A stretch of DNA of 64,000 nucleotides from Escherichia coli 042 (GTDB taxonomy: Bacteria; Pseudomonadota; Gammaproteobacteria; Enterobacterales; Enterobacteriaceae), in the NCBI RefSeq assembly GCF_000027125.1, contig NC_017626.1, one strand, 5' to 3'. Below, piece after piece: positions 9,927 to 38,044 of this stretch. The number at the start of each line of letters is the position of its first letter. Position 1 is the first letter of the stretch. The notes under the pieces are model-generated. The model saw only the letters and a program-made list of their open reading frames with translations. It did no database searches and was not told the origin of the DNA. Position numbers and translations under genes: made by a program.

Positions 9927-11751
9927 ATTTGAGCTTAAGGCGTTGATCACCGGTGTCGACAGGCTTTCTCCCGCGCTGTCGAAAATGCAAAAGAAAATCC
10001 GGGGATTTAAACGCCAGGCGGAAGAAGCGTCACAGGGTGGGCTGGCGCTTGGTGGCGGACTGGCAGCGGGGCTGACGCTTTCCCTGAAATCTTATGCCGA
10101 TCAGGAAAACGCCGCTACCGGGCTGAAAGTCGCCATGATGGATGCGAACGGCGAGGTTGGAAAGCGCTTTCAGGACATCAATAAACTGGCTATTGGCCTG
10201 GGTAACCAGCTACCCGGTACAACGGCTGATTTCCAGAACATGATGCAGATGCTGGTGCGTCAGGGGATCCCGGCAGAAAACATCCTGGGTGGTGTGGGTA
10301 AAGCGACAGCTTATCTTGCGGTACAACTGAAAAAAACACCGGAAGCGGCTGCTGAGTTTGCTGCAAAGATGCAGGATGCTACCGGAACGGCTTCAGAAGA
10401 CATGATGGGGCTGTTCGACACTATCCAGAAGGCGTTTTATCTGGGCGTTGACGATACCAACATGTTGTCCTTCTTCACTAAAACCAGTTCTGTTCTGAAG
10501 ATGGTGAACAAGGACGGTCTTCAGGCTGCACAGAGCCTTGCCCCTATCAGCGTCATGATGGATCAGATGGGGATGAACGGGGAGTCGGCAGGTAATGCCC
10601 TGCGAAAAGTTATCCAGTCCGGATTAAGCGTTAAGAAAATCAGGGACGTCAATAAAGTCATGGCCCGCCAGAAACTCGGGGTACAGCTCGATTTTACTGA
10701 CGGCAAAGGGAGTTTTGGCGGTCTTGATAACATGTTTAAGCAACTGGCAAAGCTGCGAAAACTGACCGACGTTAAGCGAACAGGTGTACTTAAGGCAATA
10801 TTTGGTGATGATGCCGAAACCCTTCAGGTGGTCAATGCTCTGATCGATAAAGGAAAGGATGGTTACGATCAGATCCAGCAGAAGATGAATAAACAGGCCA
10901 GCCTGAATAAACGTGTTCAGGCACAGCTTGGTACGCTGTCCAACCTGTGGGAGGCAATGACGGGGACCGCAACTAACGGTCTTGCAGCTATTGGCGGCGC
11001 ATTTTCTGGTGACGCTAAAAATATCACGCAATGGTTGGGGGCGTTGGGGGAAAAATTCACGAAGTTTGCGGATGAAAATCCCCGGGTTATTCGCGGCGTC
11101 GTCGGGCTTGCTGCCGGTCTTGCGATTCTGAAACTGGGATTGATGGGCGTTGGCGGTGCCATCAGTATTGTCAGCAGGATCATGTCGATGACGCCGATTG
11201 GCATGATTGCGACGGCGATAGCCCTGGCTGCGGGATTAATTATCACTAACTGGGATGTTGTCGGACCTTATTTTAAGAAACTCTGGGAAACCATTGGTCC
11301 TTATTTTGAGGCTGGCTGGGAACTCCTAAAGAAAGTTTTTGCCTGGTCGCCGCTGGGGATGGTGATCAATAACTGGGGACCGGTTGTTAAGTGGTTTCAG
11401 GATATGTGGGACAAGCTGAAGCCAATTATTGAGTGGTTTACCGACAGTTCCGGTGACACGGTCGATGCCATTAACTCTGCGCAGTGGGGCGCGGGTGCTT
11501 ATGATGCTTATGGGACGGGAATACCGGCGCGGGGATACACACCTTATCCGGCGGTGGATCCGGCTCAGTCAAACAACGCCTCCGATGCCACAGGCCCGAA
11601 TCCCTTCATGATTAACAAAGCTTCTGCGCCAAAAGTTGATGGCGAGATCAAGGTTTCATTTATGAATATGCCACCAGGTATGCGGGTTACGGAAACACGT
11701 TCCAGTGGCATTGATATTAATCACGATGTTGGGTACACCAGATTTAGGTAA
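9919..11751 (+). CDS. Tail tape measure protein
   Basis: 610-aa ORF with Ala/Gly-rich hydrophobic segments after the chaperone pair. Confidence 0.85.
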   Translation: MAEFELKALITGVDRLSPALSKMQKKIRGFKRQAEEASQGGLALGGGLAAGLTLSLKSYADQENAATGLKVAMMDANGEVGKRFQDINKLAIGLGNQLPGTTADFQNMMQMLVRQGIPAENILGGVGKATAYLAVQLKKTPEAAAEFAAKMQDATGTASEDMMGLFDTIQKAFYLGVDDTNMLSFFTKTSSVLKMVNKDGLQAAQSLAPISVMMDQMGMNGESAGNALRKVIQSGLSVKKIRDVNKVMARQKLGVQLDFTDGKGSFGGLDNMFKQLAKLRKLTDVKRTGVLKAIFGDDAETLQVVNALIDKGKDGYDQIQQKMNKQASLNKRVQAQLGTLSNLWEAMTGTATNGLAAIGGAFSGDAKNITQWLGALGEKFTKFADENPRVIRGVVGLAAGLAILKLGLMGVGGAISIVSRIMSMTPIGMIATAIALAAGLIITNWDVVGPYFKKLWETIGPYFEAGWELLKKVFAWSPLGMVINNWGPVVKWFQDMWDKLKPIIEWFTDSSGDTVDAINSAQWGAGAYDAYGTGIPARGYTPYPAVDPAQSNNASDATGPNPFMINKASAPKVDGEIKVSFMNMPPGMRVTETRSSGIDINHDVGYTRFR

Positions 11752-11758
11752 AGACGAA

Positions 11759-11779
11759 CAGGGAGGGCCGCCCTCCCTG
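11759..11779. terminator. GC palindrome between tape measure and the antisense moron
   Basis: CAGGGAGGGC-C-GCCCTCCCTG; the T-rich flank is on the minus-strand side. Confidence 0.35.
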
Positions 11780-11783
11780 AACT

Positions 11784-12194
11784 TACTGTGCGAACACGCA
11801 ATTTCGGCCTGATGGGGAGCCGACAATTCTGGACATTTTTTCGCAAATAACAGTTACTTGTTCTCCTTTTTTAAGAGCAGCAGCTGTTGATTTTTCAGAG
11901 TCTTGCATCTCCATTCTTGCTGGCATGAATTCATTTTCAGTTCTGAATTTAATAATTATAGAGTCAGTAAAGTCCTTATCAATGGATTGTACGATACCTC
12001 TAACGGCGATTAATTTACCTTTTAACTGTTCATCGGTAGCGACTTCATTTTCTTCATACTCTTTAAACAGCTGTCGAGCAGTAGTGTTGTAGATTTCTTT
12101 TTGCGGTGCCGCAGCTTCCGTATCGGATGAGTATGAAGAATTAGAGCCTTTATCGTTACCAGTAAATATTACTACTGATAATAAATATGGGACT
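11784..12194 (-). pseudogene. Low-GC moron: OB-fold (tRNA_anti-like pattern) protein remnant with no start codon
   Basis: 136-codon open frame with no in-frame ATG/GTG/TTG until 46 codons before the stop; translation ...LFKEYEENEVATDEQLKGKLIAVRGIVQSIDKDF...KKGEQVTVICEKM...; AT-rich compared with flanking phage DNA. Confidence 0.4.
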
Positions 12195-12197
12195 TAT

Positions 12198-13523
12198 ATG
12201 ACGTGGAAAGACAGACTTCAGGACGCGTCATTTCGCGGCGTGCCGTTTAAGGTTGAAGAAGAAAGTGCGGGAACCGGTCGCCGTGTGGAAACACATGAAT
12301 ACCCGAACCGCGACAAACCCTATACCGAAGACCTGGGGAAAATCACTTTTCGCCCGTCCATCACGGCTTATGTGGTGGGAGATGACTGCTTTGACCAGCG
12401 CGATCGCCTGATTGACGCGCTGAATAAACCCGGTCCCGGCACGCTTGTCCATCCGACATACGGTGAGCTGAAAGTCTGTGTTGACGGAGAAGTTCGGGTC
12501 AGCACATCGAAGAGTGAAGGGCGTATTGTCCGCTTTGACCTGAAGTTTGTCGAAGCGGGAGAACTCTCTTACCCCACTTCAGGTGCGGCGACGGCGCAGA
12601 CGCTGATGTCATCCTGTTCTGCACTGGATGACTGCATCAGTGACAGCTTCAGAGGTTTCAGTATCGATGGCGTGGCGGATTTCGTGCAGAACGACGTCGT
12701 CGGTAATGTCAGCACAATGCTTGGGTATGTTTCTGATGCGATGAAAGTGGTGGATTCTGCCGTATCGGATGCTGCCAGGCTGTTGCAGGGGGATATCTCG
12801 GTACTTCTGCCGCCACCATCGTCAGGCAAAAATCTCGTTGAGCAGGTGCAGAAAATGTGGCGTACCGGGAAACGCCTTTATGGTAACGCCAGCGACCTGG
12901 TCACCATGATCAAAACGCTTTCCGGTGTCAGCCTCGGCAGCGATCTGCAACCGCGCGGCGTCTGGAAAACGGACAGTAAAACCACCGCCACGGCTACGCA
13001 GCAGCGTAACGTGGTTGCCAGCACCCTTCGTACGACCGCAATCAGCGAAGCGGCGTATGCCGTCACCCGATTGCCTGCGCCAACAACTTCCGCGGTGATG
13101 CAGAATGCCGCAGTGGGGCAGGCAACAACACCTGCGCAGAGCACTGGCTGGCCTTCCGTCACGCATCCGGCACTGAACAATGCACCGACGGTGAAAAACA
13201 CAGTTGACCTGCCGACGTGGGAAGAACTGACTGACATTCGCGACACACTGAATACGGCAATTGATAAGGAGTTGTCCCGTACAACCAGTGATGCGCTGTT
13301 TCTGGCGCTGCGCCGGGTGAAAGCAGATCTGAATGCGGATATCAACACGCGCCTTGAACAGTCTGCACGGATCATTCAGCGCACGCCGGATGAGGTTTTA
13401 CCCGCGCTGGTGCTGGCGGCGACCTGGTTTGATAACGCGGCGCGTGACGCGGACATTATCCGGCGTAATGCCATTACGCATCCCGGATTTGTGCCGGTGA
13501 TCCCTCTGAAGGTGCCAGTGTAA
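12198..13523 (+). CDS. DNA circularization protein (Mu gpN-like)
   Basis: 441-aa ORF starting MTWKDRLQDASFRGVPFKVEEESAGTGRR...; position after tape measure as in Mu-like tails. Confidence 0.7.
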   Translation: MTWKDRLQDASFRGVPFKVEEESAGTGRRVETHEYPNRDKPYTEDLGKITFRPSITAYVVGDDCFDQRDRLIDALNKPGPGTLVHPTYGELKVCVDGEVRVSTSKSEGRIVRFDLKFVEAGELSYPTSGAATAQTLMSSCSALDDCISDSFRGFSIDGVADFVQNDVVGNVSTMLGYVSDAMKVVDSAVSDAARLLQGDISVLLPPPSSGKNLVEQVQKMWRTGKRLYGNASDLVTMIKTLSGVSLGSDLQPRGVWKTDSKTTATATQQRNVVASTLRTTAISEAAYAVTRLPAPTTSAVMQNAAVGQATTPAQSTGWPSVTHPALNNAPTVKNTVDLPTWEELTDIRDTLNTAIDKELSRTTSDALFLALRRVKADLNADINTRLEQSARIIQRTPDEVLPALVLAATWFDNAARDADIIRRNAITHPGFVPVIPLKVPV

Positions 13524-14602
13524 TGAACGATAACGTCACGCTACGGGTAAATGGCCGGGAGTGGAATGGCTGGACATCGGTGCGCATCGGTGCCGGTGTT
13601 GAACGACTGGCGCGGGATTTCAGTGTGGAGATCACTCGCCAGTGGCCGGGAGATGAGGGTATCACCACGCTTCAGCCGCGCATTAAAAACGGTTCAAAAG
13701 TGGAAGTGCTGATTGGTGATGAGCTGGTGATCACCGGCTGGGTGGAGGCGACTCCCGTTCGTTACGATGCCCGTTCGGTCAGCACCGGTATTGCCGGACG
13801 TAGTCTGACGGCTGACCTGATTGACTGTGCAGCCGAACCGACACAGTTTAACGGACGCTCGCTGGTGCAGATTGCGCAGGCGCTTGCTGCGCCTTTCGGC
13901 ATTGAGGTGGTGAACAGCGGTGCGCCGTCGGGTGTTATTCCTGATGTTCAGCCTGATCACGGTGAAACGGTGATTGAGGTAATCAACAAAATACTCGGTC
14001 AGCAGCAGGCGCTGGCTTATGACGACCCGCACGGCAGGCTGGTGATTGGTGGTATTGGCTCAACGCGGGCACATACCGCGCTGGTACTCGGGGAAAACAT
14101 CCTTTCCTGCGATACGGAGAAGAGTATCCGGGAGCGGTTTTCTGTTTACCAGGTGGCGGGGCAGCGTGCCGGAAACGACGATGATTTCGGTGAGGCCACC
14201 ACCACCGCGCTGCGGGCCCGCACAGAGGACGCATTTATTGCCCGTTACCGTCCGATGTATATCAGGCAGACAGGACAGGCTACGGGGGCTGGCTGTATTG
14301 CCCGTGCGGACTTTGAAGCCCGACAACGGGCGGCGCGGACGGATGAAACCACCTATGTGGTGCAGGGCTGGCGACAGGGTAACGGTACGCTGTGGCAGCC
14401 CAACCAGCGGGTGATTGTCTTTGATCCGGTCTGTGGTTTCGACAACACCGAACTGCTTGTTTCGGAAGTCACGTTTACTCAGGACCAGAACGGCACCCTG
14501 ACGGAAATCCGTGTCGGCCCACCAGATGCTTATCTGCCTGAACCCGAAGCCCCCGGCGCGCGGAAAAAGAAAAAAGCCAGAGTACAGGAGGACCCGTTCT
14601 GA
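13523..14602 (+). CDS. Tail/baseplate hub protein (Mu gpP-like)
   Basis: 359-aa ORF, ATGA-coupled, in a Mu-like baseplate gene order. Confidence 0.7.
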   Translation: MNDNVTLRVNGREWNGWTSVRIGAGVERLARDFSVEITRQWPGDEGITTLQPRIKNGSKVEVLIGDELVITGWVEATPVRYDARSVSTGIAGRSLTADLIDCAAEPTQFNGRSLVQIAQALAAPFGIEVVNSGAPSGVIPDVQPDHGETVIEVINKILGQQQALAYDDPHGRLVIGGIGSTRAHTALVLGENILSCDTEKSIRERFSVYQVAGQRAGNDDDFGEATTTALRARTEDAFIARYRPMYIRQTGQATGAGCIARADFEARQRAARTDETTYVVQGWRQGNGTLWQPNQRVIVFDPVCGFDNTELLVSEVTFTQDQNGTLTEIRVGPPDAYLPEPEAPGARKKKKARVQEDPF

Positions 14603-15150
14603 TGAGGACGATTGAAGCCATGCAGCGACAACTCCTCGGCCTGATTGGGCGGGCCGTGGTGAAAAGCATCAGTGCCGCCACGAAATGTCAGACCGTGGAT
14701 GTGTCCCTGATTGCCGGTGAACCCAAAGCCGGGGTTGAACATCTTGAACCCTACGGTTTTACTGCAAGGGCAAACATCGGTGCGGAAGCGGTGGTGTTGT
14801 TTCCGGATGGCGACCGTTCTCATGCGGTGGTTGTTACGGTGTCGGACCGTCGCTACCGCCTGAAAGGGCTGCAGACGGGGGAGGTGGCTGTCTATGACGA
14901 TCAGGGGCAGTCCGTGACGCTGACCCGGGAGGGGATTGTGGTGGACGGTGCAGGTAAAACGATCACGTTTCGCAATGCACCTGAAGCACGTTTTGAAATG
15001 GACCTGGAAGTGACAGGACAGGTGAAAGACCTGTGCGACTCCGGCGGCACCACCATGTCAGCGATGCGGCTTGCCTATAACGGGCATCGTCACAGAGAGA
15101 ACGGTCAGGGCAGTAACACCGACAAACCTGATAAATCGATGGAGGCATGA
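14602..15150 (+). CDS. Baseplate spike protein (Mu gp45 / gpV-like)
   Basis: 182-aa ORF in the baseplate block. Confidence 0.65.
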   Translation: MRTIEAMQRQLLGLIGRAVVKSISAATKCQTVDVSLIAGEPKAGVEHLEPYGFTARANIGAEAVVLFPDGDRSHAVVVTVSDRRYRLKGLQTGEVAVYDDQGQSVTLTREGIVVDGAGKTITFRNAPEARFEMDLEVTGQVKDLCDSGGTTMSAMRLAYNGHRHRENGQGSNTDKPDKSMEA

Positions 15151-15575
15151 TGGAACTGTGGCTGACGGTGAACGGTAAACGCACCTGCGCCAGCGCACCG
15201 CTGGATCCGCTGACCCGCGCCGTGGTGATTTCCCTGTTTACCTGGCGGCGGGCGGAGCCTGATGACAATGCCGACGTCCCGATGGGATGGTGGGGGGATA
15301 CCTGGCCTGAGGTACAGAATGACCGTTACGGCTCCCGACTGTGGCTGCTTCAGCGCAGCAAACTGACCAATCAACTGGTGCAGACGGTAAGGGGGTATAT
15401 CCGCGAATGCCTGCAATGGATGATTGATGACGGCGTGGTGTCCCGTATTGATCTGGATATCCGCCGCACCGGGATTAATGAACTGGGTAACAGTATCACT
15501 CTCTGGCGTCGTGACGGACCGGTAATGATTTCTTTTGATGATCTGTGGAGTGCGATAACGCATGGCGGACAGTGA
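15147..15575 (+). CDS. Baseplate protein (gpW / gp25-like, Mu gp46-like)
   Basis: 142-aa ORF, overlapping coupling. Confidence 0.6.
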   Translation: MMELWLTVNGKRTCASAPLDPLTRAVVISLFTWRRAEPDDNADVPMGWWGDTWPEVQNDRYGSRLWLLQRSKLTNQLVQTVRGYIRECLQWMIDDGVVSRIDLDIRRTGINELGNSITLWRRDGPVMISFDDLWSAITHGGQ

Positions 15576-16620
15576 ATTTCAGCGCCCGACGCTGGCAGAA
15601 AATATCAGTATGCTCCGTAACGATTTATTCGCCAGGCTGGACGTCAGCGACACGCTCCGGCGCATGGATGAAGACGTGCGGGCAAAGGTGTATGCGGCGG
15701 CGCTGCATACGGTTTACGGGTACATCGATTATCTGGCAATGAACATGCTGCCTGACCTGTGCGATGAGTCCTGGCTGGCGCGACATGCTGCGATGAAACG
15801 GTGTCCGCGCAAGGGGGCCACGGCTGCCAGCGGGTATATGCGCTGGGAAGGTGTCAGCGATGGCCTGAAGGTGACCGCCGGAAGTGTTATTCAGCGCGAT
15901 GACCTGGTTCAGTACACGGCAACTGCCGATGCAACCAGCACCGGTGGTGTCCTGCGCGTGCCGATCGCCTGCTCAAGTGCAGGCGCGGTCGGTAACGCTG
16001 ACGACGGTACGTCATTAATCCTGGTCACGCCGGTTAATGGTCTGCCGTCTTCCGGCGAGGCAGATACCCTGACAGGTGGATTTGATACTGAAGAGCTGGA
16101 AACGTGGCGCGCCCGCGTCATTGAGCGGTATTACTGGACGCCTCAGGGCGGGGCTGACGGGGACTATGTCGTCTGGGCTAAAGAAGTGCCCGGCATTACC
16201 CGCGCATGGACATACCGACACTGGATGGGAACGGGGACTGTCGGTGTGATGATTGCCAGCAGTGACCTGATTAACCCCATTCCGGAAGAATCAACGGAAA
16301 CGGCGGCAAGACAACATATCGAGCCACTGGCCCCGGTGGCAGGCTCTGATTTGTATGTATTCAGGCCGGTGGCGCACAAAGTGGATTTTCATATCCGCGT
16401 GACGCCGGACACACCGGAAATACGGGCTGCCATCACCGCGGAGTTGCGTTCATTCCTGCTGCGTGATGGTTATCCGCAGGGAGAGCTTAAGGTATCGCGT
16501 ATCAGTGAAGCGATTTCCGGTGCGAACGGGGAATACAGCCATCAGTTGCTTGCTCCGGCGGACAATATCTCCATTGCAAAAAATGAACTGGCGGTTCTGG
16601 GGACGATTTCATGGACGTGA
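15562..16620 (+). CDS. Baseplate J-like protein (Mu gp47-like)
   Basis: 352-aa ORF in the baseplate block. Confidence 0.75.
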
Positions 16621-17195
16621 CAAACGATGATTACATCCGTCTGTTGTCGGCACTGTTGCCCCCTGGTCCGGCGTGGTCAGCCAGCGATCCGGCGATTGCC
16701 GGTGCGGCACCGTCATTAACCCGTGCTCATCAGCGTGCGGATGCCCTGATGCGGGAGCTGGATCCGCGCACCACCACCGAACTGATAAACCGCTGGGAGC
16801 GTCTGTGCGGCCTGCCGGATGAATGTATTCCGGCAGGGACGCAGACCCTTCGCCAGCGTCAGCAACGGCTGGATGCGAAGGTTAACCTGGCGGGTGGCAT
16901 CAATGAGGATTTTTACCTTGCGCAGCTTGCTGCCCTGGGCAGACCAGATGCCACCATCACGCGATACGACAAAAGCACGTTCACCTGCTCATCGGCCTGT
17001 ACTGACGCGGTGAATGCGCCGGAATGGCGGTATTACTGGCAGGTCAATATGCCAGCTGCCACCAACACCACCTGGATGACATGTGGCGATCCCTGTGATT
17101 CCGCACTGCGTATCTGGGGGGACACCGTTGTCGAGTGCGTGCTTAACAAACTCTGCCCGTCGCATACCTACGTAATTTTTAAATATCCGGAGTAA
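16611..17195 (+). CDS. Tail protein (Mu gp48-like)
   Basis: 194-aa ORF between baseplate J and the fibre gene. Confidence 0.6.
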
Positions 17196-17198
17196 TTC

Positions 17199-18131
17199 AT
17201 GCATCGTATAGACACGAAAACCGCGCAGAAGGATAAGTTCGGCGCGGGTAAGAACGGTTTTACCCGTGGTAACCCCCAGACCGGCACGCCTGCCACCGAT
17301 CTGGATGATGACTACTTTGACATGTTGCAGGAGGAGCTTTGCAGCGTGGTGGAGGCATCCGGTGCCAGCCTGGAGAAGGGGCGGCATGACCAGTTGCTTA
17401 CAGCGCTTCGTGAGCTGCTGTTAAGCCGCAAGAATCCGTTTGGCGATATCAAATCGGATGGCACGGTGAAAACGGCTCTCGAAAACCTTGGTTTGGGAGA
17501 TGGCTCGGGGCGTTACAGCAAAACTGTCGTTTTTTCATCGTCGGGTTCATATACGTGGCCAGCTGACGTAAAACGAATTGACGTTATTCTGACTGCGGCG
17601 GGCGGCGGTGGCGGTGGATGTAACGCGGAGAACGCAAATCAGACATTTTCAGGGGCTGGCGGAGGAGCCGGAGGTACTGTTTTTGCCACTATTTATGCGA
17701 CAGACAACGATGCCGGGCCAGGAACCTATACAGTGACAATTGGCAGCGGTGGTAGTGGTGCCAATGGGGCAGGGTCTGGAAATAATGGCGGTAATAGTTC
17801 GTTCATGACATTAACTGCGCTCGGCGGCCAGGGTGGGCAATGGGGCGGCGCTACAAATACCGCTGGCGGGCGCGGTGGCTCAGGCTCTGGCGGTTATAAA
17901 ACTGAACAAGGCGGAGACGGTTCAGACGGACAGGCGGGCCAGGCGCTATTAGTAGGCAATGGGGCATCGAGCTATTGGGGTGGCGGCGGCCGCGCTGGGC
18001 AACTGAGCGGTAATCCTGGAGTTTGCTCTGGCTCCGGCGGCGGGGGTGCATACGATAATAGCTATTCACACACGTCAGGACGTGGCGGGCACGGAGCTAA
18101 TGGCGTGCTGGTAATTCGGGAGTACATGTAA
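17199..18131 (+). CDS. Tail fibre protein with Gly-rich C-terminal region
   Basis: 310-aa ORF with a conserved fibre-type N-terminus ([21 protein letters not shown]...) and G-rich repeats. Confidence 0.7.
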
Positions 18132-18536
18132 ATGAATGATGTTTATGCAGTTGTTGATAATAACGTTGTTATTAATGTCATTATCTGGGACGGAATTTCT
18201 GAATGGAAACCAGAGGCTGGTAATTTAGTTCCGTTAAACGGCGATGCTGGCATCGGTTGGTCATATTCAGACGGAGTATTTACCGCGCCACCTCCCCCAG
18301 AACGCTCTCACAACGCGTTAGTTGCGGAGGCTGAGCTGCAGAAATCAGCACTACTGACCGTAGCAAATAACGCAATAGCACCGCTGCAGGATGCCGTTGA
18401 TTTGGAAATGGCGACAGACGATGAACAGACGTTACTGCTGGCGTGGAAAAAATACAGGGTACTGCTGAACCGTGTTGATACCTCAGCGGCACCCGAAATA
18501 GAGTGGCCTACGCAACCGGGGGAGCGGGCCAGTTGA
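18132..18536 (+). CDS. Tail fibre assembly protein (Tfa/U-like)
   Basis: 134-aa ORF ending ...[33 protein letters not shown]. Confidence 0.75.
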
Positions 18537-18657
18537 TATCAGGCGCAGGGGCAGCATCAACTGCTGTCACTGCGTCGATGTAGTCGAGTACCGCATTCAG
18601 CCGCCTTTTTTCATCATCAGTCAGTTTGCGGCCTACACCTCTCCGTTGACATCTTTG
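18508..18657 (-). pseudogene. Remnant of a second, convergent tail fibre assembly gene (tfa')
   Basis: Minus-strand frame bounded by TAA upstream, no start codon, ending ...[39 protein letters not shown], parallel to the Tfa C-terminal motif; overlaps the 3' end of tfa. Confidence 0.45.
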
Positions 18658-18834
18658 TTATATGGTACAACTGCGCAGAGGCCTGTCTCTCCAACTGTGC
18701 CAGTTGAATACTACGATACAACGCTCGGCCTTCCTATTTGGTGGAACATAACCACATCCACATGGAAAAGAGCTGATGGTGCAGATGTATAATTCTGGTG
18801 CCGCGCATGCGGCACCAATAAAAAACATATTAAA

Positions 18835-20310
18835 CTAAAGTGAATCTATTCCATTTTTCCAAATAAGAACTTTTTTGTCTTGTATTTTATGAGTGCTATC
18901 AGGCTGCCCAAACTGTTTTATGGCCTTTTCCTCTTGCTCTACATCATCAGCAATTAAAAAATTAGCTCCTTTTTGGTACCATTCTTTTTTTGATAACCAA
19001 TTATATGGTGTGAATCTATCACCATACGACTCAAATGGAGCTACGTTGATATCACTAAATCCAGCAACAGATGATGCAAACCAAAATGATGCATAACCTC
19101 TTTGTAGTTTATTTTTTATTAAGAAATCTCTTAATTCTATTGTAATATCATTTTTATTAACAATGTTTTTTGTTGTTGCCATCGTTGGCAACGATAACGC
19201 AATAACGATTAATGATATTAGTAAATTTGTCTTCACTGGTAAGGAGAAAGAATTTCTAGCAATCACAATTGACATGAAAATAAATGTTGGGACTATGTAT
19301 CTAATTGAGAAAAGATTTGTTGGCCTGTCACTTGAAACATAGGCAATCAACATGACTAATGATGATACAATAAGAACCTGGTCAATAAAATCAATTTCTT
19401 TAAATTTAAGAATGTTTTTATAAGATAAAAATAAGAATACAAAAATGAAAAACACCTTTATCATGGTGAATAATGAGTTAAAGCTACCTATCTCCATTCC
19501 AAACGCGTACCCACCAAAAAATTTGAATACGCCCATGATAACAAGAGATATGTTGCTTGTTATTTGTTGAAACTCTACTATGTGAGGTTTGGTTATGCCT
19601 GGCAGGTTAAATCCACCAAGCTTAATGAATATAAATGATATGATCTCAGCAATAAATATAGATGATATAGTGAAAACCAACAATAACAAATCATTAGTAT
19701 TCAACGAATCTCTTTTCATTAGAGAAGCATACATTCTATATATGCAAACAAAAACTATAGGTATTATAAAGGCATATTTAGATATATCATCACTAAAAAC
19801 AAGCAACGATAACATAAATACATATGGAAAAAGTAATTTTAAATCATTTTTCTTTCTGTATCTATCTATTATTAGTATGATCGCCAGCATGTAAATGTAC
19901 GCACCAATATGTATACATGCTATAAGCATTATACTTGATGAGAAAACCGTTGGAATTCCAAATACAGAAAGAACAGGCCATAACGATGCCCTACTTTTAG
20001 TATGAGAGATATATAGCGATAGTGTTACTAATATAGACATGAAAACTCCAGGCACAATATAGTACAGATTTTCATTAAATCCTATTATTTTTATCGCTAT
20101 AGCATATGGTATTATTTCTGTGAAATAGAATGATACAGTTGATAAATCCCACCCACTGAGAAAAATATTTCCTTCAGTAATATCCCTTGCCTCTCTGAAT
20201 GAAGACATGACATCTGAGTTTGGAATTATGTTTTTAGCAATCATTGAGTAAATTATTGATAATACAATAAATGTTGCCAGCCAATATAAAAGCTCAAGCT
20301 TCTTGCTCAT
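18835..20310 (-). CDS. gtrC: Serotype-specific O-antigen glucosyltransferase (GtrC-type polytopic membrane protein)
   Basis: 491-aa, strongly AT-rich, multi-TM ORF directly downstream of gtrB with a 4-nt overlap. Confidence 0.7.
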
Positions 20311-21224
20311 TTTTTACCCTTAAGTACATACTTTGGACGCTGCTTAACTTCAATGTAAATTCTACCAATATACTCACCGAGCACTCCAATCCCAATTAAC
20401 TGGATGCCGCCAAGAAATAATATTGATACAAGAATTGAAGGGTATCCAGGTACATTATTACCAAAAATTAATTTATCAATTATCATCCATGAACCGTATG
20501 TAAATGATATACATGCAATAAATAACCCAATATAGGTCCACATGCGAAGCGGGAATGTTGAGAAGCTAGTGATCCCTTCCAGCGCCAAGTTCCATAGCTT
20601 CCATCCATTGAACTTTGTGCTTCCTGCAACGCGTTCTGCTCGCGCATATTCTACGACATCGGTTCGACCACCAACCCAGCTCAGCACACCCTTCATAAAC
20701 AGGTTTCGTTCTGGCATGAGCTTAATATTTTCTACTACTTCGCGAGACATGAGCCGGAAGTCGCCAACATTCTCTTCTATCTGAGGGTTGCTGATTTTGT
20801 TATGAAGTTTATAGAACCACTCAGCAGATTTACGCTTCAGCCTGCTGTCAGTGGAGCGGTCAGAGCGTTTAGCCAGAACCATATCTGCACCGGCCTGCCA
20901 TTTCTCTATCAAGTGAGGAATAACTTCGATAGGGTCTTGCAGATCAACGTCAATCGGGATAATTGCCTCCCCGGTAGCATGGTCCAGACCTGCGAACAGG
21001 GCGGGTTCTTTGCCGAAGTTACGTGTGAACGACAGCGAAACCACAAGCGGGTCGGCAACAGCGAGCTCGTTGATAATTGATTCTGTAGCGTCTTTGCTGC
21101 CATCGTTTATGAAGACTATCTCGACTTCATGCTGCTGAAGCCCTTCAAATTCGCGCACAGTTTTATAAAAAATAGGTATCGTGGCCTCTTCGTTAAAGAC
21201 CGGAACGACTAAAGAAATTTTCAT
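20307..21224 (-). CDS. gtrB: Bactoprenol glucosyltransferase (GT2 family)
   Basis: 305-aa ORF with GT2 N-terminal motifs ([21 protein letters not shown]) and C-terminal TM helices. Confidence 0.9.
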
Positions 21225-35348: not shown

Positions 35349-36062
35349 ATGGAATCATACTCGCAAAACAGCAATAAATTAGATTTTCAGCACGAGGCCA
35401 GGATATTAAACGGCATATGGCTCATTACAGCTTTGGGTTTGGCGGCAACCGCAGGACTGGCCTGGGTAGCGAAGCATCTTGAAATTACGGCAACAAAATA
35501 TGATTCACCGCAAATGTATGTCGCCATAGGATTATTATTACTTTGTATGTATGGTTTAAGTAAGGATATCAACAAGATAAATGCCGCCATCGCAGGCCTA
35601 ATATATCTGTTTTTACTCTCTTTGGTGGCGATTGTCGTTGCTAGTTAAGTTCCTGTATCTGCCATTATCGTCGTGTTCAGCACCGCGGGCGCGATGTTTT
35701 TAATCAGTATGCTGGCCGGTTTATTATTTAATGTTGATCCTTGTTCTCATCGTTTTATCATTATGATGATGTTGACAGGGTTGGCCCTGGTGATCATCGT
35801 GAATGCCGCATTAATGAGTGAACGGCCCATTTGGGTAATAAGTTGCTTAATGATTGTGTTATGGTCAGGCATTATCTCGCATGGACGAAATAAGCTCCTT
35901 GAACTGGCAGGAAAATGCCATAGCGAAGAGTTGTGGAGTCCGGTTCGTTGCGCTTTTACAGGTGTATTAACACTCTATTACTATTTTATCGGCTTCTTTG
36001 GGATTCTTGCAGCAATAGCGATAACGCTTGTCTGGCAAAGGCATACGCGGTTTCATATTTAA
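35349..36062 (+). pseudogene. ybhM: ybhM interrupted by an in-frame TAA at 35646..35648
   Basis: Two ORF-track fragments (to 35648, and from 35673) are in the same frame and separated only by a single TAA; overall span equals a full-length gene. Confidence 0.7.
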
Positions 36063-36120
36063 CGCACTTTCGACTTACGTTTAGAAATGTAGTATCTGAA
36101 ATATAATAGTGGAGAATATC

Positions 36121-36498
36121 ATGCAGTTAGTTTGTACCATCGATAAAAAATATATGGATAAATTTATGGCTATACTGTTTTCAGGAGTGTTACATTCCTT
36201 GAAAGAAGGTTCAATAACTATAGATGAATCTGAACTACTTGTTTTTAGACCTTTTATTTCCAGGCTTTTGCACAAAAATAGTTGTGATAAAGAGTTAATA
36301 GATATAATCGATCTTGGTTGTGAGTTTGAAGATATTGAGTCCCTGGTTCCTGAGCATCTTGATGATGCTATAAAAAACTTAATAACCAAAGTAAGTGATT
36401 TTACATATGCAACAAAAGATAATTATCCCTTGAGTGATAAAATGGAACATGCAGTATCTTTTATGTTTACAAATAACAACGGGCATGATGTGCATTAA
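36121..36498 (+). CDS. Island ORF-A, acidic hypothetical protein
   Basis: ATG with GGAGA RBS; AT-rich; C-terminus ...DNYPLSDKMEHAVSFMFTNNNGHDVH recurs in the remnant at 37705..37830. Confidence 0.5.
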   Translation: MQLVCTIDKKYMDKFMAILFSGVLHSLKEGSITIDESELLVFRPFISRLLHKNSCDKELIDIIDLGCEFEDIESLVPEHLDDAIKNLITKVSDFTYATKDNYPLSDKMEHAVSFMFTNNNGHDVH

Positions 36499-36586
36499 TG
36501 TGGAATGCTAATAAATTGACCATAATTATGTATTCTTAGAATAGTATTGCAAATGTTAATTATGAAAATAAATATTGTGGATTATA

Positions 36587-37045
36587 ATGAAAAATAAAAT
36601 CGAGTTTGATCAGGCTATTAAAAATGCTTATCTCGATATGGCGTTTCCCAACTTTGCATTTGTGATGGAGAAGTATAACTCATTAAAATATAAAGGCATA
36701 ATTACTGAGTTGAGTTCACGGTTTGATGTAAGAGATAACACTGAATTAAATAATGATGTTTGTTTTTCATTAGAAGTTGTTTTGCAAGAAGGTATTGCCT
36801 TTTTATATATGTCTTTTGTCGGGCAATATGCATTTATAATATTCAAAAACGACGTTATAACAAAACATGCAAATATAAATGCAGATGTAGCAGGTTTAAT
36901 TGATATATTGCTTTGTCATGAATTCATGATTTTGGATAAAGAATTTTTACTAAGTGAAGTTAGTTGCGATATTTGTCCGTTTTTAGTCGAAGCAAATAAT
37001 AAATATTTAAATTATTTATTCGCTCGTGGATTGAAAATAAAATAG
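36587..37045 (+). CDS. Island ORF-B, hypothetical protein
   Basis: 152-aa AT-rich ORF co-directional with ORF-A (track start 36575). Confidence 0.45.
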   Translation: MKNKIEFDQAIKNAYLDMAFPNFAFVMEKYNSLKYKGIITELSSRFDVRDNTELNNDVCFSLEVVLQEGIAFLYMSFVGQYAFIIFKNDVITKHANINADVAGLIDILLCHEFMILDKEFLLSEVSCDICPFLVEANNKYLNYLFARGLKIK

Positions 37046-37104
37046 CGTTATTGTTAACTAGTTTAAGATATTGAAATTTGTTATTTAACATATCAGGATG
37101 TTCT

Positions 37105-37704
37105 ATGTTAATAAAGTTAATTGATTTACAAACTATCAAGATTTTCGAAAAAATAAACTCATCTTCATCCGATTTAAGTAAGGAAATAAAAATAAAATCG
37201 CCGCTTCTAATTCCCTATGAAAATCAAGGGGTAACATTTTATTGTGATGAGCTATATGTATTTGATTCCGATGGTTATATTGTATTTGGTCATGATTTAG
37301 ATGGTTATTTTATTGTTAGCGTAAAAAACAAGAAAGTTTATTACTTGTATGATATAGACGAATGCGCAAATTTTACGATGATGTATTGCAATTCTGGAAT
37401 AAATGATTTTATTATATTCAATAATATTTTTATGCAGGCGGTTTTTAAACAATCAGAATTGATGGAAAAACAATTGTTAACAGATGATGAAATTTTATCA
37501 GATGCAATGGATGCTATATTTACCCAATGCGACAGTGAGGCTATGAAAGATGATGCCTTCTGGGGCTTAAGATGCTACGAGCTTCGCGACGGCTTTTTTC
37601 CTTTAAATGATGCCAAAATTAAATTTTATAGTGAAATGGAAAAAGGTCCTCATCAAGGCAAAAGTGAATCCATTCACAAGAGCAAGTTGAACAAAAATGA
37701 TTAA
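37105..37704 (+). CDS. Island ORF-C, hypothetical protein (possible immunity-protein-like fold)
   Basis: 199-aa ORF with AGGA RBS; C-terminal ...DAFWGLRCYELRDGFFPL... motif. Confidence 0.45.
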   Translation: MLIKLIDLQTIKIFEKINSSSSDLSKEIKIKSPLLIPYENQGVTFYCDELYVFDSDGYIVFGHDLDGYFIVSVKNKKVYYLYDIDECANFTMMYCNSGINDFIIFNNIFMQAVFKQSELMEKQLLTDDEILSDAMDAIFTQCDSEAMKDDAFWGLRCYELRDGFFPLNDAKIKFYSEMEKGPHQGKSESIHKSKLNKND

Positions 37705-37830
37705 ATGAGAGGCTCTTCACATCGCCGCTTCATTATTCGTCCAGAAAAAGATGATTATCCCTTAAGTGATGAAATGGAAAATGTGGTTTCCTTGGGATTT
37801 AGCAATAATAAGGATTTGCAGAATGTTTAA
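37705..37830 (+). pseudogene. Remnant of an ORF-A paralogue fused to a ybhN-3'-like repeat
   Basis: 41-codon frame MRGSSHRRFIIRPEKDDYPLSDEMENVVSLGFSNNKDLQNV; last ~26 aa align with the ORF-A C-terminus at ~75% nucleotide identity. Confidence 0.45.
37715..37741. repeat. Direct repeat copy 1: duplicate of the ybhN 3' terminus
   Basis: CTTCACATCGCCGCTTCATT is identical to 38046..38065, with partial similarity extending further. Confidence 0.7.
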
Positions 37831-38044
37831 AGATAAAACTGTCGCAGCGGAAATTAGTGCATTAATGCTTGAGATTGGTGCGAAATTAGATAATTCCGTT
37901 TCAGTTGTTCAGATAAGTTGTGATGAATCTGAGTTTAATATTTATCGGGCCGCCGTTGGTGAAATTATGGGGCGCATGCTAATCGACATCATGAACCCCA
38001 TTTATAAACAGCATCCCGAACTTAAACAAAAAGAACTTAACTAA
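37826..38044 (+). CDS. Island ORF-D, small hypothetical protein
   Basis: 72-aa ORF from MFKDKTVAAEISALMLEIGAKL...; ATG overlaps the remnant stop. Confidence 0.4.
   Translation, partial: FKDKTVAAEISALMLEIGAKLDNSVSVVQISCDESEFNIYRAAVGEIMGRMLIDIMNPIYKQHPELKQKELN

Follow-up and report, generated by a model that had tools for sequence, protein, structure and literature searches.

The window analysed here comprises 64,000 nucleotides of Escherichia coli 042, and the segment under study lies in it within a lambdoid prophage of the SfII/SfV type that carries gtrABC. Between the tail tape measure gene and the gene for a DNA circularization (Mu N-like) tail protein (Table 1), the minus strand displays a reading frame of 136 sense codons, open throughout from position 12193 down to a TAA stop at 11785-11783. 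Base composition differs along the region, with a GC content of 0.38 for 11783-12193 versus 0.51 for the tape measure gene (9919-11751) and 0.56 for the N-like gene (12198-13523). Upstream, the frame is closed by an in-frame stop at 12196-12194, 1-2 nt off the ATG of the N-like gene at 12198, and its earliest in-frame canonical start (ATG, GTG or TTG) is the ATG at 11926, which is codon 90 and leaves an ORF of 47 aa. These features coincide with the initial annotation of the segment, which had described an AT-rich antisense stretch between the tape measure and Mu-N-like genes, open for 136 codons, with a late first start codon and an upstream end abutting the start of its neighbour. The same annotation had proposed either the remnant of a 5'-truncated moron of lipoprotein type, encoding a tRNA_anti-like OB-fold protein and regarded as a candidate exclusion or host-interaction factor, or a gene that makes use of an unusual start.

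Table 1. Features at the junction between the tape measure and N-like genes in the window.
Feature	Positions	Strand	Basis and remarks
Tail tape measure gene, 610 aa	9919..11751	+	Left neighbour of the moron slot; ORF list, RefSeq annotation of the locally identical NZ_CM144243.1
GC-rich hairpin CAGGGAGGGCCGCCCTCCCTG	11759..11779		Between the convergent tape-measure and OB-fold genes; terminator scan
Sole in-frame canonical-start ORF, 47 aa	11783..11926	-	C-terminal third of the OB domain; no Shine-Dalgarno; not considered a gene
OB-fold moron remnant, codons 25-148 and stop	11783..12157	-	STEC388 alignment, PF12869, PHROG 8545, family alignment
142-bp deletion junction, TAA microhomology	12155..12159	-	Gene strand ATATTTACTGG/TAA/CGATAAAGG; 142 gap columns
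Twelve codons VPYLLSVVIFTG, formerly upstream non-coding DNA	12158..12193	-	Holds ATA 12169-12167, the RefSeq start
DNA circularization (Mu N-like) tail gene	12198..13523	+	Right neighbour of the moron slot

The translation of the open frame matched the Pfam family PF12869 (tRNA_anti-like) with E = 8.2e-17 over residues 11-118, and PHROG 8545 with E = 4e-42, the latter along profile positions 34-176 only. It was also 99-100% identical to residues 25-148 of intact E. coli proteins of 148 aa from these same families, annotated as 'OB-fold protein' (WP_000734912.1 and WP_096129238.1 are examples) and encoded in antisense at the same tape-measure/N junction. The part of the frame that is genuinely coding can be narrowed to 11783-12157 (124 codons plus the stop), which spans a linker rich in Ser and Thr as well as the entire OB domain with its two invariant cysteines. 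An Rfam scan of 11400-12600 found nothing above the gathering score, and a reading of the segment as a non-coding RNA was rejected on that basis.

The region 11700-12300 was then compared by megablast with 5426 complete E. coli genomes, where full-length matches were of two kinds, either one piece of 601 nt or two pieces spanning 743-744 nt; the 1-bp difference in length among loci of the longer, intact kind falls between the stop codons of the tape measure and OB-fold genes, outside the latter gene. Alignment of the window with the intact locus of STEC388, whose 148-aa product starts with MKKLLKWILYIFIGLVIIGYFAGNNDKGS and is preceded by the DNA AAGGTGATAAC, shows, in 663 columns, no differences other than one gap of 142 nt and one substitution. 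The missing DNA comprises ~70 nt upstream of the ATG, including the Shine-Dalgarno motif AAGGTGA and a candidate extended -10 element, together with codons 1-24 of the 148-aa gene (MKKLLKWILYIFIGLVIIGYFAGN), which contain its sole transmembrane segment. Thus, the absence of a start codon in the window allele is due to a deletion that removed the start along with the first 24 codons. The two ends of the deleted DNA share a 3-nt TAA microhomology (ACTGGTAA followed by TGCC at one end, GGCAATAA followed by CGAT at the other) and, since this TAA is common to both, the junction is placed within 12155-12159. An identical junction string was found at loci L001, L013, L034 and L035, while intact loci keep both flanks. 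As judged from these alignments, the lesion is shown to be a single event of 142 bp at the TAA microhomology. Upstream of the junction, the codons VPYLLSVVIFTG at 12158-12193 correspond to DNA that is intergenic in intact alleles; after the deletion they came to be in frame with the remnant, and are stop-free by chance. The gap between the tape measure and N-like genes amounts to 446 bp in the window, 588 bp in the intact allele, and ~60 bp in phages SfII and vB_EcoM-689R6.

The intact protein was then explored for its family, fold and topology. It matched PF12869 with E = 3.9e-19 over residues 2-130 and PHROG 8545, labelled 'superinfection exclusion Sie-like', with E = 1.5e-49 over positions 14-176 of 177, while neither the NCBIfam nor the PADLOC models gave any match to it. 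An AlphaFold2 model built on a 74-sequence alignment reached a mean pLDDT of 85, with block means of ~94-98 across most of the OB domain, and predicted a helix at residues 3-21, a disordered stretch at 23-39 and a helix-capped beta-barrel at 46-146. When this model was compared with solved structures by Foldseek, the best match was 3F1Z, followed by the anticodon-binding OB regions of Asp-, Asn- and Lys-tRNA synthetases, RPA and Stn1. A search of the PDB by sequence profile yielded no match at all, so that 3F1Z came to light through the fold comparison only. The OB fold proposed initially, for which profile and structure searches had been suggested as a check, is thus confirmed for the intact protein at the level of a predicted model, and the PF12869 match is significant for the remnant as well. 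3F1Z itself is a structural-genomics entry for a putative nucleic-acid-binding lipoprotein of K. pneumoniae, matched here with E = 1.4e-5 and TM scores of 0.52-0.64. It resembles the intact protein in combining an OB barrel with a helical element and in being tethered to the envelope, but the sequence identity between the two is just 17-18%, and 3F1Z is described as a lipoprotein, whereas the subfamily studied here has a TM anchor that looks uncleaved.

This last aspect bears on the lipoprotein identity assumed initially, which did not stand. The intact E. coli protein is not a lipoprotein because its N-terminus, ...IIGYFAGNNDKG (...GYFAGNN), has no cysteine, and no lipobox occurs in 71 of its 74 relatives. 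Among those 74 sequences, the N-terminus is TM-like in 71, carries a lipobox in 3, and in 3 shows a cytoplasmic zinc ribbon ahead of the TM segment. The OB domain, for its part, contains exactly two cysteines in 73 of the 74 members, both of them invariant (C129 and C144). Considering that the anchors are interchangeable and the cysteine pair is conserved, we infer that the OB domain would be anchored to the inner membrane on its periplasmic side. Its charge is roughly neutral (median net charge of +2, pI values of 5.1-9.4) and was therefore uninformative as a clue to DNA binding.

The ~560-bp cassette that encodes the intact protein lies in antisense between the tape measure and N-like genes, and the window keeps the 3' five-sixths of it. 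In SfII and vB_EcoM-689R6, homologous tape measure and N-like genes are separated by a gap that merely contains a hairpin, indicating that the cassette is an insertion. By comparison with these SfII-type phages without it, the OB-fold cassette is, on sequence grounds, a genuine moron. This agrees with the description of such elements (PMC3594210), as it constitutes additional DNA separating genes that adjoin each other in relatives and has a deviant base composition. Taken together with the 142-bp deletion, this bears out the 5'-truncated moron remnant of the initial annotation, and the intact homologues it had led one to expect at the same position in related prophages do exist, with an N-terminal export or anchor segment. 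Morons are also described as having a terminator and a promoter of their own. Regarding the former, the hairpin at 11779-11759, with 9 GC-rich base pairs and a T-rich tail on the minus strand, looks like a putative terminator of the minus-strand moron transcript, as a match to the consensus only; in the intact allele the terminator scan called it for both strands, and in the window for the minus strand. Regarding the latter, a consensus scan upstream of the intact gene revealed no canonical sigma-70 promoter. An extended -10-like motif, TGC(C/T)ATAA(T/A), which ends 59 nt upstream of the ATG and was seen by eye to be conserved in both allele lineages, is the candidate element that falls inside the 142 bp deleted in the window. 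In the window, no promoter-like site lies upstream of the remnant, and all of the upstream DNA that the intact allele has is deleted.

The second allele lineage just mentioned encodes a product of 150 aa, is represented by strain 15.03CC at the same junction, and shows 75% nucleotide identity to the first. Between both lineages the OB domain displays a pN of 0.11 and a pS of 0.80, the latter saturated, giving a pN/pS of 0.14. In addition, the gene occupies this junction at three loci (L036-L038) whose tape measure and N-like proteins are just 67-72% identical to those of the window. Given this ratio and its presence in tail modules that are only ~70% identical, the gene is, on these comparisons, maintained by selection where it is intact. 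Homologous protein clusters number more than 90 across Enterobacterales.

Turning to the distribution of the alleles, the intact cassette was found in 54 records among the 5426 complete E. coli genomes and the deletion in 15, the latter corresponding to at least 8 distinct genomes, as one genome of 5,067,659 bp has been deposited eight times. Strains DG341-1 and SCU-482 are among the carriers of the deletion. The 3' end of the gene is lost beside an IS1 element in two further records, and the diverged allele is present in at least 3. At the 16 IMG/VR loci of the first allele lineage, the deletion junction was seen in two (L034 and L035), the other 14 having both flanks intact. When contigs are counted, the 128-aa product annotated for the remnant appears in 152 and the intact 148-aa product in at least 1000. 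Considering that 15 records from at least 8 genomes, 2 of 16 IMG/VR loci and 152 contigs carry either the junction or the product, the deletion is a real recurrent allele and not an assembly error. Its setting could be explored in the deletion-bearing prophage of DG341-1, which is 99.9% identical to window positions 1-18742 and sits between ybhC and ybhB. This prophage is otherwise complete, with int/xis, recombination genes, a repressor region, replication genes, Q, lysis genes and iss, as well as an HK97-type head, an SfII/Mu-type tail and gtrABC; gtrABC is within the window, and iss, in the near-identical DG341-1 prophage, corresponds to a position outside it. The lesion is, therefore, small and specific to an accessory gene rather than a sign of general prophage decay. 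Separately, database products of 133, 138 and 141 aa exist besides that of 148 aa. Further lesions were considered as their origin and discarded, as the RefSeq loci examined, UMNK88 included, carry the full 447-nt gene; such products are most simply explained by differing choices of start among annotators.

Despite its missing start, the remnant is presented by RefSeq as a 128-aa 'OB-fold protein' CDS (MFTGNDKG..., WP_071821387.1), for which the PGAP pipeline uses the ATA at 12169; it is for this reason that the unusual start of the initial annotation was considered. No Shine-Dalgarno motif was found in the 22 nt (CCCATATTTATTATCAGTAGTA) ahead of this ATA, and the consensus promoter scan detected no promoter-like site upstream of the remnant in the window. 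The best Kyte-Doolittle window of 19 residues scores 2.16 for the intact protein and only 0.55 for the remnant, in line with the loss of the export signal. The sole promoter-like site of the region, TTGATA-16-TATAAT (11982 to 11955 on the minus strand, 11 of 12 matches), is internal to the coding sequence and equally present in intact alleles. Expression of the 47-aa ORF from this site was also contemplated and rejected as a chance coincidence, since that ORF has no Shine-Dalgarno motif and covers a third of the domain only, and the site is shared with intact alleles. Thus, the window allele has neither a start with a ribosome-binding site nor the anchor formed by residues 1-24, and in comparison with the intact members of PF12869/PHROG 8545 it is a defective one, devoid also of the upstream region. 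Given that the ATA has no Shine-Dalgarno motif or promoter-like site ahead of it, stems from intergenic DNA and is followed by no hydrophobic segment, the RefSeq gene model is probably an artefact of homology-guided start picking, and the unusual start finds no support. We infer that the remnant is unlikely to be expressed as a functional protein, so that its RefSeq entry should carry a pseudogene flag.

These data allow the possible natures of the segment to be weighed. If the open frame had arisen by chance in an AT-rich spacer without coding function, the lack of a start codon would be natural, spurious features being frequent in such DNA. Nonetheless, AT-rich DNA is stop-rich, so a frame of 136 codons runs opposite to chance, and the highly significant Pfam and PHROG matches indicate that this one is not fortuitous. 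The intact-allele alignment, the numerous homologous clusters and the purifying selection between allele lineages, together with the Pfam match, refute the chance origin, whose probability we consider negligible. It might alternatively be envisaged that the remnant is still functional, its translation from the non-canonical ATA giving an OB-fold protein that stays in the cytoplasm and serves a new role. In agreement with this, PGAP treats the segment as an intact CDS in records of identical sequence, no stop interrupts the 12 codons that precede the junction, and the allele persists in several distinct genomes and many contigs. On the contrary, initiation at ATA in E. coli attains ~1% or less of the level of ATG, and in this case it would have to occur with no Shine-Dalgarno motif in the preceding 22 nt and with no promoter-like site between the ATA and the divergent N-like gene, just 28 nt away. 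Moreover, those 12 codons correspond to intergenic sequence in intact alleles, the sole TM/export segment is gone, and both the invariant cysteine pair and the variety of anchors in the family argue for a domain that works outside the cytoplasm. Retained function is for these reasons regarded as very unlikely. The segment is, with a probability of around 0.85, a pseudogene, that is, the dead 5'-deleted remnant of a membrane-anchored OB-fold prophage moron. As a feature it is already known, since it belongs to a catalogued family (PF12869/PHROG 8545), its product is in RefSeq and its intact form is common; being a decayed accessory gene, it is in itself of little importance.

The role of the intact protein was approached through its genomic contexts, surveyed at 80 loci from viral contigs. 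The arrangement seen in E. coli, antisense between the tape measure and N-like genes, was displayed by 20 of them. In at least 11 viral loci the OB gene lies 14-31 bp downstream of a gene for a CI-type repressor (phrog_4, E = 5e-55) and is co-oriented with it; upstream of the repressor, the other strand carries a CII-like gene. In at least 10 P2-like loci, a regulator or repressor, a membrane protein (phrog_6521) and the OB gene follow one another in this order, convergent with tail gene D, and the same order, starting with an annotated immunity repressor, is found in Burkholderia phage Carl1. Other placements include antisense beside the tape measure gene (L056), antisense inside the baseplate operon in Klebsiella phage ST405-OXA48phi1.2, and the prophage end after the tail fibre genes in Serratia, while no phage gene occurs within 8 kb of some Pantoea homologues, which reside in chromosomal islands. 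Positions next to repressor or tail genes are typical of genes expressed in the lysogen, as exemplified by lambda rexAB, which sits after cI. The placement of the intact gene therefore suggests, as far as gene order can tell, that it may be expressed in the lysogen.

A working model for the intact protein is offered by HK97 gp15, the founding moron, which is produced from the prophage under expression signals of its own, adjoins the tape measure gene, inserts in the inner membrane and blocks genome entry (PMC3594210, summarising Cumby et al. 2012). Its block depends on the tail of the incoming phage and is proposed to prevent this tail from forming the DNA channel (PMC3594210). Like gp15, the OB-fold moron is a small insertion of deviant GC content beside the tape measure gene in the tail operon. 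Unlike it, it has an OB domain and lies between the tape measure and N-like genes, gp15 being a member of the YebO family encoded between the tail assembly chaperone and tape measure genes. The analogy is thus positional and topological, with no homology claimed. By this analogy, the intact gene would be expressed from the repressed prophage, the TM helix of its product would display the OB domain in the periplasm, and this domain would interfere with genome entry by the incoming phage. That the intact protein is such a superinfection-exclusion factor, acting at the step of genome entry, is put forward tentatively, at odds slightly short of even. It would in this respect also be analogous to Sie proteins encoded next to repressors, such as lactococcal Sie2009.

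A further parallel is found in the phage homologues of TcdC, in which a membrane anchor is joined to an OB fold matching PF12869 and which are encoded between CI repressor and integrase genes (PMC3575817). They share with the intact protein the hydrophobic anchor and the C-terminal OB fold (PF12869 by profile comparison), and their placement in the lysogeny module beside the CI repressor recurs in no fewer than 21 of the viral loci surveyed. They differ in belonging to Gram-positive phages, and the coiled-coil dimerisation region of C. difficile TcdC is absent from the OB-fold moron. TcdC has been reported to bind G-quadruplex DNA. The intact family might provide another lysogenic-conversion or envelope function, or a TcdC-like regulator, and not exclusion; the window allele would still be a dead copy. 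OB folds bind oligosaccharides, proteins and nucleic acids, so that an oligosaccharide, peptidoglycan or a host periplasmic protein could be the ligand. No function has been assigned to 3F1Z, the closest among solved structures, PADLOC gives no match, Pantoea homologues occur in non-phage islands, and the prophage already has conversion genes, namely gtrABC in the window and iss in its DG341-1 counterpart, all of which is compatible with such a role. However, the repeated placement downstream of CI-type repressors and beside tape measure or tail genes points rather to exclusion, as does the label of PHROG 8545, even if this label is an annotation only and no paper characterising any PF12869/PHROG 8545 member was found in the searchable literature. 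A viral structural neighbour with the tRNA_anti-like fold also carries the description 'Host cell surface-exposed lipoprotein', a name borne in Pfam by the family whose founding member is the Sie protein Ltp. Balancing these observations, a role other than exclusion is a serious possibility, though one we hold at somewhat below even chances.

Should the proposed exclusion role be correct, the deletion in the window would be a natural knock-out, and the 54 records with the intact allele would offer closely related material to compare with it. It is a fair possibility, somewhat short of even odds, that intact members make up a widespread exclusion class that blocks genome entry by binding the tail tip, the tape measure protein or the DNA in the periplasm. 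Such proteins are common in prophages of Enterobacterales and Burkholderia. Since the family is frequent, repeatedly adjacent to repressor or tape measure genes, and new to experimental characterisation as far as the searchable literature goes, it may be regarded as a reasonable and cheap candidate for a new mechanism of exclusion at genome entry.

The truncated OB-fold remnant, which lies between the tape-measure and Mu N-like tail genes of the prophage, has been entered by RefSeq/PGAP as an intact 128-aa 'OB-fold protein' (WP_071821387.1) that lacks a pseudogene flag and is given ATA as its start codon. This annotation is carried by NZ_CM144243.1 and 14 other records, and the product is found in 152 contigs. 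A second, independent inactivation of the same moron was observed in E. coli EJN001 (L016), where an IS1A element directly adjoining the OB-fold gene has taken the place of the gene's 3' end and of the upstream tail genes, the remaining piece being annotated as 'OB-fold putative lipoprotein'.

Within the OB-fold coding sequence of the 042 remnant there is also a near-consensus sigma-70 promoter-like site (TTGATA-16-TATAAT, 11/12 matches), which is likewise present in intact alleles. AT-richness probably accounts for this site; in principle, it could drive in the remnant a short antisense transcript running into the GC-rich, terminator-like hairpin located between the convergent tape-measure and OB-fold genes.

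At the prophage end adjoining ybhB, an O-antigen glucosylation (serotype-conversion) module was identified, consisting of gtrA, gtrB and a 491-aa gene occupying the place of the type-specific gtr. The serotype-specific gene has been swapped relative to the prophage of strain DG341-1, since a segment at this position finds no match in that otherwise 99.9% identical prophage. Outside the prophage, ~2.5 kb of chromosome, approximately the ybhN-ybhL interval, finds no match in the corresponding DG341-1 region, and its flanks show just 97.9-99.3% identity, indicating that the window comes from a strain background other than DG341-1.

Coordinates of the features discussed
Feature	Sequence	Position	Strand
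Promoter-like site	window	11955-11982	minus
ATA start codon of WP_071821387.1	window	12167-12169	
Serotype-conversion module	window	18835-21583	minus
491-aa gene	window	18835-20310	minus
gtrB	window	20307-21224	minus
gtrA	window	21221-21583	minus
Unmatched prophage segment	window	18742-20307	
Unmatched chromosomal segment	window	35465-38030	
Inactivated moron, EJN001	NZ_CP086338.1 (L016)	929484-929816	
5' end of intact gene	L002	3459-3541	
Carl1 gene pair	L011	3061-4312	
ST405-OXA48phi1.2 relative	L012	3632-4300	

When the intact gene was compared between the two allele lineages (L002 vs L015), synonymous sites were far more conserved in the Shine-Dalgarno and first 24 codons (pS 0.31) than over the remainder of the coding sequence (pS 0.80). 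This suggests either that the 5' end recombined recently or that it is under a nucleotide-level constraint, linked to regulation or to the initiation of translation.

The OB-fold gene of P2-like phages consistently has an upstream partner gene, which encodes a membrane protein of 240-275 aa (phrog_6521, category 'moron'), the pair sitting downstream of a repressor or regulator (loci L063-L065, L069-L074 and L083, and genes 38-37 of Burkholderia phage Carl1); both genes may form a two-gene module. Some OB-fold relatives carry an N-terminal cytoplasmic zinc-ribbon before the TM segment, as in Klebsiella phage ST405-OXA48phi1.2 and family members P0078, P0081 and P0083, one such relative being misannotated as 'hydrogenase maduration factor'. 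The zinc-ribbon hints at a cytoplasmic partner or a signalling role for the anchor of these variants.
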